Source: a virus. From it: a stretch of 64,000 bases of DNA. Shown here piece after piece: positions 7,700 through 50,232 of the stretch (positions are counted from its first letter, which is position 1; each line of letters starts with the position of its first letter). The translations under genes were made by a program, and so were the position numbers. A model generated the notes under the pieces. It saw nothing but the letters and a program-made list of their open reading frames with translations. It searched no databases and was not told the origin of the DNA. The stretch is taken from the IMG/VR virus record IMGVR_UViG_3300050160_000070. One strand, written 5' to 3'.

Positions 7700-7758
7700 T
7701 CGATCATGGGTAAGTGGATATACTTACCCCATTCATTTTTGAAAAAGGTAACGACATA

Positions 7759-9003
7759 ATGAACAGTTACATTCTGACTCGTGACGGGGCTGCCCTGGTG
7801 ATCAACGGCAAGCAGTTCACACTGAACGATCAACATCCGAACTTCGCATTGGTGCTGGACAAGGTCCGCGCCAAGCAATGGGCAGACATCCCTGACCTAA
7901 TCAACGTGTCCTTGGCACTCTCCAAGATGGCCAACGGTCTGATCACTGTGGACACGGAAGCTGCTGCTGTCTACTTCCGTGGTCAGCCGATCCACAACAC
8001 CGCCGTCGATCACATGATCGCAATGATGCGTGACGGCTTCGATGTGGAACCAATGTCGAACTTCCTGGGCAACCTGTACCAGAATCCGAACCCGAAGACG
8101 ATTCAGGCGGTGTATGGTTGGATGCAAGCGAACAACGTCACGATCACAGAAGATGGCTGCCTGATCGCATACAAACGCGTCCGCAGCGATTACCTGTCGT
8201 TCTACGATGGAGCAACCAAACATGCGATCGGTCAAGTTACGTCGATTGCCCGGGAGCAGTGTGACCAAGCCAACGAGAACACGTGTTCGTCTGGTCTGCA
8301 CTTCTGTTCGCACGCCTACCTGCCCCACTACTACAACGGCGAGGGCCGTGTGCTGATCCTGAAGATCAACCCCGCACACATCACTGCAATTCCGACTGAC
8401 TACAACTTCGCCAAGGGCCGTACCTGCTCGTATGAGGTGATTGGTGAGCTGGACGGTGAAGCGCGCCAACTGATCGAACGTGAAGCTGTGATTACCACTC
8501 CGGTGATGACCGAACAAACGAACGCAAGTGCCACTCAAGCGTTCAAGACCGGCTACCAAGCTGGTTACAAGGATGGTCGTGGCAAGCAGGCGTTCGGTAA
8601 GTCGGTGAATGCAGACTTGTGGGCTGATTCTGAAGAGTACAAACAAGGTTACCGCGAAGGTCGCGACGATGGTCGCAAGAAGCTGCCGAAAAAGTACGGT
8701 GACGGCACTGGTACTCCGGATATTCAACTAGGCACTGCTCCTGCTGCGAACAACATCATTCCCACTCCGCTCTTGGATCGTGCACGCTTCATCACCAGCG
8801 ACATGATGGGTGTTCCCGTTAGCCAAATCAATGAAGCCACTGCGTTCGTGGCTGACCTCGGCGCAGATTCTCTCGATCTGGTTGAACTGGTGATGTACTT
8901 CGAGGACGATTTCGGCATCGAAATCTCTGACGAAGATGCTGAACGCTGTGTGACTGTTGGTGATGTGTGTCAAATGCTGCTCAGCCGCGGCATTGGAGGC
9001 TAA
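7759..9003 (+). CDS. rIIB: rIIB-like protein with C-terminal acyl carrier protein domain
   Basis: [46 protein letters not shown] (rIIB); in-frame [30 protein letters not shown] (ACP, Ppant Ser at 8869-8871). Confidence 0.88.
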
Positions 9004-11521: not shown

Positions 11522-12604
11522 ATGACCAAGTTCGTGCGCGACAATGAGAATTTCTACGTTTCGTCGCAATCTCCAGAGAATCTGCTGGATCGCCTGCCTG
11601 CTGGCAACTACACCATCGGCAAGAACCCGATGACTGGTCAGCTGTTCCTGCAACGAGTCGACTCGTTCAAGCAACCCGGCAAGCTGTACGGCAATGTGAT
11701 GGCTCGCGCACAGCGGATCATGAACACGTTCGACGATCGTCCTGGCACCACTGGCGTGCTGCTGAACGGCGAGAAGGGCAGTGGCAAGACCCAACTGGCT
11801 CGCGTGATCAGCCTGGAAGCTGAAAAGATCGGCATGCCGACCATCATCATCAACGGCCCGTGGACCGGCGATGCGTTCAACGCCCTGCTGCAGTCGATCG
11901 ACCAGCCGTGCGTCGTGTTCCTGGACGAGTTCGAAAAGGTGTACGACAACGACGACCAAGAGGCTGTGCTGACGCTGCTGGACGGCACGTTCACCAGCAA
12001 GAAGCTGTTCCTGTTCACCGTGAACGACAAGTACAAGGTCAACCAGCACATGCGCAACCGCCCTGGCCGCATCTTCTACATGCTGGACTTCTATGGCCTG
12101 TCGACCGACTTCATCGTCGAGTACTGCAACGACACGCTCAACAACAAGGACCACATCACCGCGATCACCCGCGTTGCGATGCTGTTTGAACAGTTTAACT
12201 TCGACATGCTGAAGGCGCTGGTGGAGGAACTGAACCGCTACGGTGAGGATCCGTACACCGCTCTGGAGATGCTGAACGCCAAGCCGACCAACCGTGACGG
12301 CGGTACGTACGACATCAAGCTGAAGCACGAAGGCAAGGACATCGAGTCGTTCTACCCGGACCACTGGGATTCCAGCCCGCTGACCCATCGTCAGCCGACC
12401 TTCAGCCTGACTCATTACATCTCCAATCCGGATCCGGATGTGGACGACGAAGAGAAGCACGCTGAATTCAAGCTGACCGATCTGAAGAAGATCGACGCTG
12501 ACGCTGGCACGTACGAATTCGTCAACGAACGCGGTGACGTGGCTGTGTTCACTCGCCGCAAGGTGAAGGAATTCAGCTACCGCGACCTGGACTACGCGTT
12601 CTGA
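11522..12604 (+). CDS. AAA+ ATPase
   Basis: Walker A GEKGSGKT, Walker B VVFLDEFEK, RPGR arginine-finger region. Confidence 0.9.
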   Translation: MTKFVRDNENFYVSSQSPENLLDRLPAGNYTIGKNPMTGQLFLQRVDSFKQPGKLYGNVMARAQRIMNTFDDRPGTTGVLLNGEKGSGKTQLARVISLEAEKIGMPTIIINGPWTGDAFNALLQSIDQPCVVFLDEFEKVYDNDDQEAVLTLLDGTFTSKKLFLFTVNDKYKVNQHMRNRPGRIFYMLDFYGLSTDFIVEYCNDTLNNKDHITAITRVAMLFEQFNFDMLKALVEELNRYGEDPYTALEMLNAKPTNRDGGTYDIKLKHEGKDIESFYPDHWDSSPLTHRQPTFSLTHYISNPDPDVDDEEKHAEFKLTDLKKIDADAGTYEFVNERGDVAVFTRRKVKEFSYRDLDYAF

Positions 12605-12608
12605 TAAT

Positions 12609-12632
12609 CAGGAGGGCCTTCGGGCCCTCCTG
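12609..12632 (+). terminator. UUCG hairpin after stop
   Basis: CAGGAGGGCC-TTCG-GGCCCTCCTG; no U-tract. Confidence 0.6.
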
Positions 12633-12648
12633 TACAGGGAGATCCACA

Positions 12649-12867
12649 ATGGACATTCATCAACTCGAACGACTAATGCGACAGACTGGTACGGTTGGTA
12701 ACGCAGCCGATCTGTTACCGCTAGCTACAGAGGTTGAGGCTTCCGTGCGCAATGAACTGTGCATCAAGCTAGCCAACGCCTTCGAGGGCCTAGCCACTCG
12801 CTTCACCCGCTACGACCCTGCTGTTGGTGCGTTACTGTGGCAAGCTGTGGCTGATCTGAGGAAGTAA
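12649..12867 (+). CDS. hypothetical protein
   Basis: GGGAG SD. Confidence 0.65.
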   Translation: MDIHQLERLMRQTGTVGNAADLLPLATEVEASVRNELCIKLANAFEGLATRFTRYDPAVGALLWQAVADLRK

Positions 12868-12869
12868 CT

Positions 12870-13106
12870 ATGACCTTGGCTATCAAAGACATCAAGGAAG
12901 GCGACACATTCTACGAATGTGAGTACGGCGCCAACGATGAGTACATCGCCCTCGAAAACGCCAGTCGAATTGACGACGACACAATGGTTGGCTGGCAGGT
13001 GATGGGTAAGCATACAGAAACTGGTGCGGAAGTCCAGTTCTTTGCGTCTGACCTGTACGGTGGCGCTTACGGACCCAAGCTGTACTGGCAACCTGCATAT
13101 TACTAA
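12870..13106 (+). CDS. hypothetical protein
   Basis: GAGGA SD. Confidence 0.7.
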   Translation: MTLAIKDIKEGDTFYECEYGANDEYIALENASRIDDDTMVGWQVMGKHTETGAEVQFFASDLYGGAYGPKLYWQPAYY

Positions 13107-13115
13107 GGACCGAGA

Positions 13116-13571
13116 ATGCTGAGCGTTGAATATACGCAGTATTGCACCCACGATTACCACTCCGGCAACCGGTTTGGTGATTGGGAGACACGCTACCAAT
13201 TTAGCGTGACTGGGGTTGTTGCTGGTTATACTCCCAAAATCAATGAACAATTTGCGCTTGGCATCGATGTCCAGCCCGGAGAAATCGTTCATGTGTTGTC
13301 AATGGAGTGGTCTGACGGTGACTCGTTTGGCCGTGCGTACGGCAAAGGAGAGGTGATGTGGGTGTTCCGAGACATCGAGCTCGGCATGGCCGCTAGGCAA
13401 AGCATTGAGACTGCTTGCCGTCATAATAATGGCTCACACACATTCTCCTTCACTTCTGACGATGGGCGAACCATTCAGCTGAATAATCCGGCGTATGGCT
13501 ATTTTGAACATCTTGAGTGTGTGTCACTACAGCCGTTCATCGTCCGAGCCGGATCTGACCCGTTGAATTAA
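13116..13571 (+). CDS. hypothetical protein
   Basis: AAGGA SD; 151 aa. Confidence 0.75.
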   Translation: MLSVEYTQYCTHDYHSGNRFGDWETRYQFSVTGVVAGYTPKINEQFALGIDVQPGEIVHVLSMEWSDGDSFGRAYGKGEVMWVFRDIELGMAARQSIETACRHNNGSHTFSFTSDDGRTIQLNNPAYGYFEHLECVSLQPFIVRAGSDPLN

Positions 13572-13591
13572 ATAGGGGAAGAGATTATAGT
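13563..13591 (+). promoter_or_regulatory. promoter for the large ncRNA (sigma70 type, with nested TAAATA late box)
   Basis: TTGAAT(13563)-17-TATAGT(13586); TAAATA at 13569-13574. Confidence 0.7.
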
Positions 13592-13597
13592 GGAGTT

Positions 13598-14125
13598 GTT
13601 GTTGATTTGCTGACGTCGAAAGACGCTTCCGGGCGTAGAAGCAACCAGAGTTATGACTGGTTGTGGAGTTTGGATTCTAAGCAGATCATCAAAAGTGGAG
13701 AAAGCGTGTAGGTACCGTTTGATACGGGCTCGAAATCCGTCCAATGGCCATAACGAAGAGTGCTGGCAGGTAGCTTAACGGTAAAAGCAATAACGATACC
13801 AATCGCGTTAGAGTGTGGTAGTGGTGAATTGACGGATCGCCCCCGTCCGTATTGCTGAGCGGTATATCCCGCGTCGGTGGACGTTTAAGAATCTGGTCGC
13901 ACCAGGCCACAACACACACCAGTATCCATAGGTAGCCGTGAAATCTTGAAATCACGGAGGTCCAATACACAACAGTTGTGAGCTCTTGTTGTGGTGTTAA
14001 GGGCAAGCCAAAACTCTCTAGACGCTGCGTGAATGCCCATGCATGCGAGACGGACTAAATCTGGACGGCACTTGTCCGACCTTAGTGCTGGAGAGCACTC
14101 GCAGGCTGGAGCGCGACTTTTGATA
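13598..14125 (+). ncRNA. large structured ncRNA, ROOL-like, domains possibly circularly permuted
   Basis: Own promoter and terminator, no credible + strand ORF, at least 10 hairpins. Motifs GACTGGTTG, TACCGTTTGATACGGGCTCGAAATCCGT, CATAACGAA, GTAGTGGTGAATT, GCGGTATA, GTGGACGT and TTAAGGGCAAGCCAA match my recollection of ROOL sequences (not computed). Confidence 0.7.
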
Positions 14126-14166
14126 GGAAACCCGGGATTACACGCCAATCCCGGGTTTCCTTGTTT
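14126..14166 (+). terminator. strong intrinsic terminator closing the ncRNA
   Basis: GGAAACCCGGGATT-ACACGCC-AATCCCGGGTTTCC (14 bp perfect) followed by TTGTTT. Confidence 0.8.
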
Positions 14167-14311
14167 GCTGATCTTTGATCGCAGCACCACACTCTTCGCA
14201 ATGTTTGATGTGACGCTCGTGGTTACAAATAGCAATTCGTCCAGTTATCAATAACAGGAGCCATACAATCATGGCTCCCCAAAGAACAGCGAGTGAAACA
14301 CCAATAGCCAT
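14138..14311 (-). CDS. 57-aa single-TM protein with His/Cys-rich tail (below ORF-track cutoff)
   Basis: MAIGVSLAVLWGAMIVWLLLLITGRIAICNHERHIKHCEECGAAIKDQQTRKPGIGV; GGAGG SD. Confidence 0.65.
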   Translation of the reverse strand: MAIGVSLAVLWGAMIVWLLLLITGRIAICNHERHIKHCEECGAAIKDQQTRKPGIGV

Positions 14312-14339
14312 GACGTCTCTCCTCCCGGTGGTTTCGTAT

Positions 14340-15029
14340 TTACTGCTTAACCGGACCGACAGACTTATTCAGCTGTTCTTGGTACACGTCATTAGCTAGT
14401 TTAACCGTTTCCAAACGAACAGCATCTGTCATTTCAGTGGAGAGCTGTTTGTCGGTAAATATAATCACGTATCCGCGGAAGTCACCGTAATATGGAGGTA
14501 ATCCAACTAGGCAGAACGTTTTCAAATGAGACGTCAGGGCTGGAACAACTCGAGCCATTAACGTGTCTGACATAGCACCACACCCAAACTCGCCGTTGAT
14601 CACGCTTACCATTCTTGCGTTGTTCGCAACATTGCTGGAGAAGATTGTTTGTGAAGACCCAAGTTGTTTTCGAACTTCCTCTAACAACTGGGTAACGGCG
14701 GGAGTCTTGCTGTAGTAGAACACAGGAAACCGCTGATTCGTCCGAAGATCAGCAGAAATTACACCCGTTACTACAATATCTGTGGATTGGTCAGTCATTT
14801 CTTTTATTCGCTGCTTCATCTTATCAGAAACAGTTACCGCTGACACAACTGGGCCAGCGTCTGTTTTAACGAATAGTTCGAACACAGTGCTCCGGTGCTC
14901 AAATAACGTAATCCCCGCAGTGCCAAGCACAGCAGCGGAAAAGACTGTAACCACTCTTTTGAAGCTAACCCAGTCAAGCAGCTTTGGTACAATGGTGGTA
15001 ATCTTCGACAATTCCATACAATTCCTCAT
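14340..15029 (-). CDS. N-terminally anchored membrane protein, paralog of 15026-15763 (T4 holin T-like architecture)
   Basis: One TM near the N-terminus then a soluble domain; shares ..SVINGEFGC..CLVGLPPYYGDFRG.. with its neighbour. Confidence 0.7.
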   Translation of the reverse strand: MRNCMELSKITTIVPKLLDWVSFKRVVTVFSAAVLGTAGITLFEHRSTVFELFVKTDAGPVVSAVTVSDKMKQRIKEMTDQSTDIVVTGVISADLRTNQRFPVFYYSKTPAVTQLLEEVRKQLGSSQTIFSSNVANNARMVSVINGEFGCGAMSDTLMARVVPALTSHLKTFCLVGLPPYYGDFRGYVIIFTDKQLSTEMTDAVRLETVKLANDVYQEQLNKSVGPVKQ

Positions 15030-15763
15030 TTAGTTTTATGCAACACATCACGCAGATACATTTCCACAGCAATGCGTGACGCTTCGATTCTTAAAGCATC
15101 GACTTCAGATTTGGTTGGATTGGTGGTAAGCCCGAACGTCAACATACCAACAAACCGTCCGTAAAACGGCGGAATAGCAATCCGACAAACAACCGGATAT
15201 TTCTCACTTAATGACGGAAAAAGACGATTGTACAAAGTGTCTTGATACCTTGTACAATCAAACTCGTTGTTTAGTACGGCAACCATCTGTTGTGTGTTTT
15301 TTGGGTCATAGTCAAACATGGCCTGCGGGAGAACGGATGACAATTGTTGCGAGATTTCAGACGATGTTGTTTCGTCGTCAATGTACCAGTACCTGGGGGT
15401 TTTCTTGTTCCGCTTGAGATCAACTTCAGACACTATGGCTATACCAACCAGATTGTTCTGGCGAATGAAATCATTGATAGTCTTTTTAGACTCAGCAGAC
15501 ACGGACCATGGTGCGATTTCGTCTGGCTGTGAGATGGTACTAATAGCAGCGTCAAACAACCGATCTCGGTTTTCAAACGCGACTAACGCAACAGACAATA
15601 GAACACCAAACAACACAACTGTTAGCATGCGTTGCAGAGTCAATTTGTCCGTAATGTATTGAAGATATTCAAACCAATCAAGTAAAGATTTTGGTTCGTT
15701 CGGAACGCTTCCTTTAGTTGGTTCAGTATCGTCAGCAATAAGGGTTTTGTTGGGATGAAACAT
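15026..15763 (-). CDS. N-terminally anchored membrane protein, paralog of 14340-15029 (T4 holin T-like architecture)
   Basis: TM helix then ..AVLNNEFDC..CRIAIPPFYGRFVG..; the holin assignment is inference. Confidence 0.7.
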   Translation of the reverse strand: MFHPNKTLIADDTEPTKGSVPNEPKSLLDWFEYLQYITDKLTLQRMLTVVLFGVLLSVALVAFENRDRLFDAAISTISQPDEIAPWSVSAESKKTINDFIRQNNLVGIAIVSEVDLKRNKKTPRYWYIDDETTSSEISQQLSSVLPQAMFDYDPKNTQQMVAVLNNEFDCTRYQDTLYNRLFPSLSEKYPVVCRIAIPPFYGRFVGMLTFGLTTNPTKSEVDALRIEASRIAVEMYLRDVLHKTK

Positions 15764-15773
15764 TGGAGGTACT

Positions 15774-16646
15774 TCACTTGTTGAGAGTCACCTCTGCCCA
15801 CTTCGGATGGCCCCACTGTTGTAGAGTCTTTTGATTCGATTGCACGCATGTTAAGAGACTGTCTACTGCTGGTTTGGGAACATCGCCGGCAGCGATGATG
15901 GAGGATTGTACATTTCTGATTATGATGTGCTGTTCCAACCATGGGTACGTACCAGCGGAGATTGTAGCAGATTGATATTCTGTGTCTAAGCGTTTGTCGT
16001 TAAGTGGGAGCAGCTCTGCGTATTGTTTCACAACCGTCCCAAGTTCGGTGAGTATGGGTATGGGGGCACCACCAACAATCACCACGCCGTCAATATTTCC
16101 GGCCAGAACAGCTATAATTGATTCTTCTGTGGGTCGCTCAACACTTAGCCACCTAGCGTTGATCAGCGTATCAATTCGGTGTGCGGTGTGCCACACACCT
16201 GCACCTGGCACGCCAATTGAAATACGTTTACCCTTAAGGTCTTTTAGAGAACGAATGTTTGATCGTTTATTGACCAGCAAGTACACATCGTCGTGATACA
16301 ACGGCGCAACTGTTTGCACTAACCCTGCTAGTCCTCTGCCCTTAAAAGCATATGCCATTGTATCGTTTTGCACAAAGGCAAAACGATACCCAGTCAATAA
16401 CACTGGGGGTTGAACCAATTGCGTGATGTTGTCAAAAGAGCCCTGAGTCGGTATAATTTGAATATCTAGGTGTGAACATGCCCTTTGGATATCCTCACCG
16501 ATGCGCGTATTTGTATTTTTCAGTGAACCAGTAAAAATCGTGTACTTTGGTCGAGCCTGCACCGATCCAACACCACTGGCTGCTGCAGTAGTGGCAATAC
16601 ACAGACATGCAACGGCGACTTTGGAAATAAACGATATTAATGACAT
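15774..16646 (-). CDS. TAXI-family TRAP transporter solute-binding protein
   Basis: Signal peptide; TQGSFDNI, FAFVQND, LYHDDVYLLV, SLKDLKGKRISIGVPGAG. Confidence 0.85.
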   Translation of the reverse strand: MSLISFISKVAVACLCIATTAAASGVGSVQARPKYTIFTGSLKNTNTRIGEDIQRACSHLDIQIIPTQGSFDNITQLVQPPVLLTGYRFAFVQNDTMAYAFKGRGLAGLVQTVAPLYHDDVYLLVNKRSNIRSLKDLKGKRISIGVPGAGVWHTAHRIDTLINARWLSVERPTEESIIAVLAGNIDGVVIVGGAPIPILTELGTVVKQYAELLPLNDKRLDTEYQSATISAGTYPWLEQHIIIRNVQSSIIAAGDVPKPAVDSLLTCVQSNQKTLQQWGHPKWAEVTLNK

Positions 16647-31411: not shown

Positions 31412-31487
31412 GCCGGCTTAGCTCAGTTGGTAGAGCAACGCTCTTGTAAAGCGTAGGTCATCTGTTCGAGTCAGATAGCCGGCACCA
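31412..31487 (+). tRNA. trnT: tRNA-Thr (anticodon TGT)
   Basis: 76-nt cloverleaf GCCGGCT..AGCCGGC-ACCA; anticodon arm ACGCT-CTTGTAA-AGCGT. Confidence 0.97.
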
Positions 31488-49782: not shown

Positions 49783-50232
49783 ATGCTGATTCTAGAGAAC
49801 CGTAAGGCCCGCTTTGATTATCACATCGGTGATGTGATCCAAGTCGGCATAGTGTTGGAGGGGTGGGAGGTCAAGTCGATCCGTGACCACCGGTTGACAA
49901 TGCCGGCTGGGTATGTGATCATCCGCGACGGAGAGTTGTGGTTGACGGGGTTGACAATCACTCCGCTCAACTCTGCCAGCACCCACGTCACCGCTGTGAA
50001 GGACCGCACGCGCAAGTTGTTAGCAAAGCGTAAGGAGATTGACAGACTGATTGGGTCGATTGATCAGAAGGGGTACACAATTGTCCCCGTTTCTTTGGTC
50101 TGGCACAACGGAGTCGTCAAGGTCAACATTGCACTTGCAAAGGGCAAATCTCATAGCGACAAGCGTCACTCCGAACACGACAAAGATGTTGCTCGAGAGA
50201 TTGATCGGATGTTGAAAAACAAAGGAAGGTAA
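49783..50232 (+). CDS. smpB: SsrA-binding protein SmpB
   Basis: ENRKARFDY, GIVLEGWEVKSIR, RTRKLL, GYTIVP, KVNIALAKGK..DKR tail. Confidence 0.95.
   Translation: MLILENRKARFDYHIGDVIQVGIVLEGWEVKSIRDHRLTMPAGYVIIRDGELWLTGLTITPLNSASTHVTAVKDRTRKLLAKRKEIDRLIGSIDQKGYTIVPVSLVWHNGVVKVNIALAKGKSHSDKRHSEHDKDVAREIDRMLKNKGR

Follow-up and report, generated by a model that had tools for sequence, protein, structure and literature searches.

To our knowledge, few large RNAs of bacteria or phages have complex, conserved folds, and those that have been studied—ribosomal RNA, RNase P, group I and group II introns, OLE, ROOL and GOLLD—have all displayed unusual biochemistry or unexpected architectures. RNAs of the ROOL family average 581 nt in length, are often situated near tRNA genes, occur in prophages or phages, and are represented at least once in each of three phyla (PMC5737381). 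ROOL and GOLLD both form RNA-only multimeric nanocages, and GOLLD, found in phages and prophages, combines a universally conserved part with a variable part (bioRxiv 10.1101/2024.12.08.627333). Bulk prediction in viral metagenomes has added ~10,000 further candidate structured RNAs (Fremin et al. 2023, PMC10690425).

The locus considered here lies in a 64,000-nt stretch of phage DNA (the window), itself taken from an IMG/VR virus record of 174,565 bp, ~50% complete by CheckV. Its + strand, from 13563 to 14170—promoter through terminator—very probably carries a previously unclassified, independently transcribed and highly structured non-coding RNA gene, and one that is not ROOL. The phage encodes rIIA and rIIB, and its DNA has been found in leaf-litter and freshwater samples. 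Its AAA ATPase finds its best match among named phages, at 49.6% identity, in Microbacterium phage Pumpernickel, which makes it distant from named phages, and no close relative was found in the IMG/VR copy searched. A 204.9-kb contig carries the neighbouring gene, too. As an aside, the rIIB ORF (7714–9003, + strand) ends in a phosphopantetheine-binding, acyl carrier domain (residues 361–422; PF00550, 46.5 bits; phrog_5934), and appears to be an in-frame rIIB-ACP fusion.

The RNA occupies a 566-nt ORF-free gap (13572–14137) between convergent genes: upstream, on the + strand, a gene for a 151-aa protein of no known family (13116–13571), and downstream, on the – strand, a membrane-type ORF of 57 aa (14138–14311). 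JGI gene calling on near-identical contigs left these 566 nt uncalled; the remaining intergenic gaps there are 3–96 nt. None of the frames of the gap matches a Pfam or PHROG family, and no reading frame is conserved between the window RNA and the homolog described below. Similarity between these two is seen in every one of the six frames, broken by stops and by switches from one frame to another, and the homologous blocks are therefore non-coding. A protein-coding or decayed gene was rejected on these grounds, in agreement with the preliminary description of this DNA, which had seen no credible ORF on the + strand. A spurious 105-aa ORF, used as a search handle on variant contigs, found nothing, and no meaningful internal repeats were found in the RNA region. 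The gap, the promoter, the terminator and the hairpins listed in that description are all present, and so the observation behind it is real. It had also called the DNA GC-rich, which is too strong for a region that, with its flanks, is ~44–60% GC.

A homolog of the RNA is present in L044, a 9.4-kb Logan contig reached by way of the holin-like neighbour (229 aa), via P0003 at 52% identity. L044 contains the same operon as the window (a TAXI/NMT1_3 protein, two paralogs and a small ORF), then, in the syntenic position, an uncalled gap of 387 nt, then a convergent AAA ATPase 56% identical to that of the window. Within the gap are two blocks homologous to window positions 13582–13713 (E 9e-9) and 13820–13947 (E 2e-12). 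At the level of DNA, window and L044 align only in the ATPase core, a metallophosphatase gene and the RNA blocks, these last at 73–82% identity.

The start of the RNA is marked by a sigma-70-type promoter on the + strand, TTGAAT-17-TATAGT (13563–13591; 9/12 matches). L044 has TTGACT-17-TATAAT (11/12 matches) on the RNA strand at the homologous position, so that the promoter proposed earlier is not only present but conserved in place. The 13 nt that follow, GGAGTTGTTGTTG, are identical in the two, and the predicted start of transcription, ~13598–13601, falls within them. The preliminary description also held that the RNA is expressed both early and late; this is unsupported, because the TAAATA nested in the window promoter is missing from that of L044. 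At its other end, the window RNA has an intrinsic terminator on the + strand (14125–14170, inverted repeat I1) with a perfect 15-bp stem—earlier counted as 14 bp—and a 7-nt loop (stem-loop 14125–14161), followed by a T-rich tail. No canonical terminator was found in L044. Over 6.4 kb, contig L041 differs from the window at a single base, T>G at 13563, the first base of the –35 element (TTGAAT to GTGAAT); the same change alters the upstream protein, leaving it 99% identical.

Between these ends the RNA is built from two conserved modules and two lineage-specific ones, all on the + strand. The first conserved module is a 5' domain (13599–13692; nhmmer match to L044, E 9e-9), a three-way junction in which P0 and P1 (13604–13611/13680–13687) enclose a GAAA-tetraloop hairpin (13614–13625) and a long arm. 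The arm is based on P3 (13628–13634/13668–13674), continues beyond it through an invariant internal loop, UAGAAGCAACC opposite GUGGAGU, and ends in an apical hairpin (13641–13648/13657–13664). Next comes an expansion of ~95–110 nt (13714–13808), an alignment gap with respect to L044, which when folded has a short GCAA-tetraloop hairpin in its place. The expansion includes a predicted T-loop-like hairpin, ACGGG-CUCGAAA-UCCGU, and part of it (13729–13789) is invariant among variants recovered from sequencing reads. The second conserved module is a four-way-junction core (13811–13920; nhmmer E 2e-12) whose closing helix (13811–13825/13906–13920) encloses P5 (13831–13835/13843–13847, loop AUCGCCC), P6 (13848–13883, apical GCGG-UAUAUC-CCGC) and P7 (13893–13905), with an invariant junction, GGACGUNUAAGAAUC. 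P5 reads GACGG-AUCGCCC-CCGUC in the window and GGUGG-UUCGCCC-CCAUC in L044. From the core, the alignment with L044 continues through a conserved strand, CCAGUA...UAGGUAGC, to hairpin P8 (together 13919–13958), which is CCGUGA/UCACGG in the window and CUGGGA/UCCAG in L044. A 3' extension of ~165 nt (13960–14124) then follows in the window and is missing from L044. The predicted RNA is thus ~540–570 nt in the window lineage versus ~320 nt in L044.

Every hairpin of the preliminary description (CGTC-GAAA-GACG, CAACCAG/CTGGTTG, ACGGG/TCCGT, CCGTGA/TCACGG, CACAACA/TGTTGTG and AGTGCT/AGCACT) is in the sequence, and the first, second and fourth of these fall in helices that L044 keeps or that covary. 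Its long-range pair between GAGTTTGG (~13666) and CCAAAACTC (~14008) did not hold up: GTTTGGA pairs locally, with TCCGGGC, to make P3, in which L044 shows three compensatory changes, and the region around 14008 is missing from L044. A search of the window and L044 found no other sites complementary to the invariant motifs.

The fold is supported by the manner in which the two sequences differ. RNAalifold, given window and L044 together, finds 28 consensus pairs in the 5' domain and 27 in the core, with 8 double-compensatory pairs in each. Because such a structure is fitted to both sequences, the window sequence was also folded alone and the fate of its predicted pairs counted in L044. In block 1, the 5' domain, 31 pairs were predicted: 16 are unchanged in L044, 3 changed on one side, 8 changed on both sides, 4 broken and 0 gapped. 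In block 2, the core, the 42 pairs divide into 19 unchanged, 4 changed on one side, 9 on both, 8 broken and 2 gapped. Pairing is thus kept at 27/31 and 32/42 positions, 59/73 altogether, and 17 of the pairs that are kept have changed on both sides. Sliding the partners by 1–3 columns gave 14–25 broken pairs per block and 0–7 double changes, and 0/2000 partner shuffles had as few broken pairs. Both versions of the RNA fold better than shuffled sequence (z –2.3 for the window, –3.2 for L044); local folding z-scores are by themselves unconvincing except at the 5' domain and the terminator.

The covariation is that of one pairwise comparison—two diverged lineages, plus partial read variants—and since only two such lineages are known, no R-scape-type statistic is possible. 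The read variants are in keeping with the fold. In variant X23, A>G at 13647 accompanies T>C at 13658, turning an A-U pair into G-C. Pairing is also preserved at 13684 (G>A), 13685 (A>G), 13856 (T>C) and 13872 (C>T), and several of the variant changes take G-U to A-U or G-C. The many G-U pairs, which would be A-C mismatches on the opposite strand, together with the orientation of the promoter and terminator, place the RNA on the + strand.

The RNA can also be found in natural communities. A 611-nt stretch was found in three freshwater RNA-seq runs from three separate studies, and when the contigs of these runs were placed on 12000–16000 at ≥80% likeness, those between 12268 and 16000 lay only inside the gap, at 13613–14020, the runs themselves having been found with the RNA sequence as query. 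One contig covers 13670–14020 (351 nt, 100% identity to the window), another 13769–13970 (201 nt, 5 differences and one gap) and a third 13613–13831 (221 nt, 18 differences and one gap); the 3' extension past 14020 lies outside this coverage. In a freshwater DNA run it is the flanking genes (14576–15855) that are covered, with identical sequence. That three RNA libraries recovered only the non-coding stretch indicates that the RNA is far more abundant than the neighbouring mRNAs, on the evidence of assembled contigs, from which strand, ends and abundance cannot be read directly. With covariation and RNA libraries added, the idea of a stand-alone, large, structured non-coding RNA gene, already put forward in the preliminary description, has gained in support.

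Two further features of these sequences deserve mention. GGAGUU at 13592–13597, just past the –10 box, is complementary to AACUCU at 14012–14017; the identical RNA-library contig stops at 14020, just past AACUCU, and the arrangement is comparable in L044, with AGCUC close to the 3' end. The two motifs could form a terminal closing helix and mark a processing site, even as the predicted transcription start would leave GGAGUU outside the RNA. In run X20 (freshwater DNA), the flanks are 100% identical to the window, yet the RNA-gene contig (13687–13913) departs from it by 7 substitutions and one deletion, a variant that RNA run X19 also contains. This sample may include a second lineage that has the RNA, or the RNA gene may be more variable than its flanks.

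The preliminary description took the RNA for a member of the ROOL family with circularly permuted domains. Length speaks for this, ~540–570 nt being close to the ROOL average of 581 nt (PMC5737381), as do its encoding by a phage and its many hairpins and multistem junctions. The comparison with L044 supports two conserved multistem junctions, in a conserved family core of ~320 nt known from two sequences. Nevertheless, the ROOL model, RF03087, whose gathering score of 99.1 bits was taken as the threshold of membership, finds no match in the region at that score, nor at E≤10 with permissive filters on both strands of 13450–14250, nor anywhere in the 174.5-kb record at E≤10. Because none of 14 control genomes was found to carry ROOL, a positive control was run on Ligilactobacillus salivarius pMP118, where the same tool scores ROOL at 130.4 bits (E 1e-29). 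In local mode, cmscan should score each half of a permuted ROOL, and no partial match was seen in the native order; when the candidate was duplicated in tandem and compared with genuine ROOL by blastn and nhmmer, chance 9-mers were all that matched. Covariance models built for the window and L044 RNA, R1 for the 5' domain and R2 for the core, are in turn silent on the genuine ROOL locus.

ROOL-like identity and the ROOL motifs proposed for the 13640–13890 core are therefore not borne out. The same is true of permutation, there being no ROOL match in either order, an outcome that the preliminary description had itself named as refuting it. The segments it took for a displaced ROOL 5' domain (13964–14010 and ~14064) sit in the 3' extension that L044 lacks. 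The setting is wrong as well: this is a large rIIA/rIIB phage of leaf litter and fresh water, and the nearest tRNA genes, at 31412 and 36037, are at least 17 kb from the RNA. We regard a ROOL assignment as extremely improbable, and since the RNA is not ROOL, the range of ROOL is not extended to such phages.

Other known families fared no better. At gathering scores, cmscan with Rfam 15 finds only two tRNAs in the window; on 13450–14250, the 4227 models give only chance-level matches, namely Thr_leader (18.8 bits, on the terminator), BSnc120 and SNORD31; and L044 has no Rfam match. GOLLD, OLE, HEARO, raiA, group I and II introns, RNase P, 6S and the other Rfam 15 families were rejected on this basis. 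So was tmRNA, permuted forms included, ARAGORN and the Rfam tmRNA models returning nothing and no tag frame being conserved.

As judged from sequence, the RNA belongs to a small, putatively new family, set apart from those of Rfam by covariance-model search. When membership is taken as R1, R2 and a promoter directly upstream, the window and L044 have all three: R1 scores 146.7 bits in the window and 142.1 bits in L044, R2 scores 158.3 and 150.3 bits, and neither has other members. Each model matches once in the 174.5-kb record, and so the gene is single-copy. No match to R1 or R2 was found in 21 related IMG/VR records, three of them complete genomes, or in two further lineages (among L052–L057) with the same downstream operon. 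Nor did nhmmer, blastn or either covariance model find the RNA in 29 IMG/VR loci identified by synteny of the ATPase, and no homolog was found in the more distant operon-bearing lineages (L052–L057, L045, L050). A blastn search of INPHARED phages had no match, no IMG/VR relatives of the TAXI protein were found, and of seven pattern scans five were empty and two gave chance matches only (L040, L049). Synteny by way of the upstream 151-aa gene led only to the near-identical contig L041 and to L002, which is without the RNA. Exact look-ups of neighbouring proteins returned at least 18 contigs, from many samples, with the RNA 100% identical in all. The putative family, as now known, is two diverged lineages and read variants at 92–97% identity.

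The position of the gene invites a different explanation: that the sequence acts in cis, or as antisense, at the convergent junction. It would then be a long 3' UTR or buffer, terminating both operons and controlling the TAXI/holin-like operon by way of the overlap between 3' ends. The RNA does have, in either lineage, the ATPase operon on one side and the TAXI/holin-like operon, by its 3' end, on the other, and in the window the convergent 57-aa ORF shares its last codons with the terminator stem. The conserved parts of the RNA are far from that overlap, however, and the sequence at the overlap itself is lineage-specific; the window phage and L044 have unrelated terminal small ORFs. Moreover, the RNA has its own conserved promoter, the RNA libraries cover the RNA and not the upstream gene, and two lineages have the same operon without the RNA. 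We consider a junction element improbable, and continue to favor an independent RNA gene.

The operon itself (14138–16646, – strand) is conserved in several phage lineages (L044, L052, L055). It comprises a TAXI/NMT1_3 solute-binding protein, two paralogs of ~230–245 aa (phrog_31287; public data include 299 cluster representatives) and a very small membrane ORF. The operons of L052 and L055 have tRNA clusters ahead of them and extend into a gene for saccharopine dehydrogenase. The uncalled gaps after the operon in these two (L052 4389–4748, L055 5323–5634) are 73% identical to each other and not homologous to the RNA; they contain a Cys-codon-rich stretch, possibly an uncalled small ORF, along with a TAAATAG motif and a GC-rich terminator hairpin.

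The phage also encodes a full-length SmpB (49783–50232, + strand; PF01668, 169 bits), and yet searches of the window and of the 174-kb record with ARAGORN and Rfam turned up no tmRNA, the sole RF00023 match (18.6 bits) being a tRNA-Pro. Could the RNA be a non-canonical partner of this SmpB, a very divergent tmRNA-like molecule? Three complete related phages are without SmpB, and the same three are without the RNA. P5 resembles the T-arm of tRNA, with a 5-bp stem and a 7-nt loop—though the equivalent of A58 is missing—and model R2 cross-matches tRNA T-arms in L052. On the other side, the RNA has no acceptor stem, no CCA, no tag-like frame conserved in both homologs, and no Rfam tmRNA match even at E≤10. 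The co-occurrence with SmpB comes from a single genome; with the record ~50% complete, a tmRNA could sit in the missing half, and the tmRNA of the host could serve. A partnership with SmpB seems to us very improbable.

Some phage and plasmid RNAs of this general kind are made to start replication. ColE1 RNA II and the T4 ori(uvsY) and ori(34) transcripts are the models for an origin primer that forms a persistent RNA-DNA hybrid, and ColE1 RNA II, at ~550 nt similar in size, needs a conserved secondary structure. The unit described here is likewise a promoter-driven, ORF-free, G-rich and structured transcript of ~550 nt. GC skew on its transcribed strand is strongly positive, +0.19 to +0.22 across 13450–13900, and cumulative skew peaks locally at the gap. 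The peak coincides with the switch in gene orientation, however, and that switch alone explains it. The conserved parts are multi-junction folds with invariant single strands rather than a hybrid-forming tract, and no AT-rich unwinding element, iterons or replication genes are adjacent. Complete relatives, too, do without the RNA. In contrast to the ColE1 and T4 transcripts, then, origin features are lacking here, and the multi-junction architecture and strong terminator point to an RNA that is folded and released. A primer transcript is accordingly a quite improbable reading.

What might a released RNA of this kind do? The stand-alone, early-type promoter, the multi-junction modules with long invariant strands, the toleration of peripheral insertions and the accumulation of the RNA are together typical of RNAs that function as folded objects. 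We imagine that host RNA polymerase would make the RNA early in infection, and that it would fold into a compact tertiary structure and act in trans, as a stable RNA. It would most likely be a scaffold or a decoy, its invariant junction strands and loops binding a host or phage protein; as a specific mechanism, we give this somewhat less than an even chance, the search for functional leads having found no partner protein, target complementarity or ligand context. An RNA-only assembly such as those of ROOL and GOLLD would be a less likely version of the same trans-acting idea. Bolder, and in our estimation unlikely, is that the RNA is the first known of a new class of large 'ornate' phage RNAs whose biochemical role is sophisticated—an RNA-only assembly, a ribozyme or a new RNP core—possibly tied to the translation-related genes of the phage: SmpB, an RlmN-like methylase and tRNAs.

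Whatever its role, the gene provides a new RNA target in two sizes, a minimal version of ~320 nt in L044 and an expanded one of ~550 nt, with defined modules, a structure supported by covariation, covariance models that work, and indications that it accumulates in natural communities. The family is narrow, two lineages only, and its minimal member is small enough for direct structural work.

Set beside what has been described before, the RNA is of the same kind as the candidates of Fremin et al.—conserved, covarying intergenic RNAs of uncultivated phages—with the comparison here being one of descriptions. Like ROOL, it is a large non-coding RNA that stands alone, is associated with phages and has several multistem junctions, no known function and, in the window, a length near 581 nt; it differs in matching RF03087 in no order, in its distance from tRNA genes, in a conserved part of only ~320 nt, and in host range and type of phage. 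GOLLD RNAs are often longer than 800 nt. The window RNA is much smaller, is not beside tRNA genes and has no Rfam match, but it resembles GOLLD in being a large, ornate phage RNA in which conserved modules are combined with large lineage-specific insertions.
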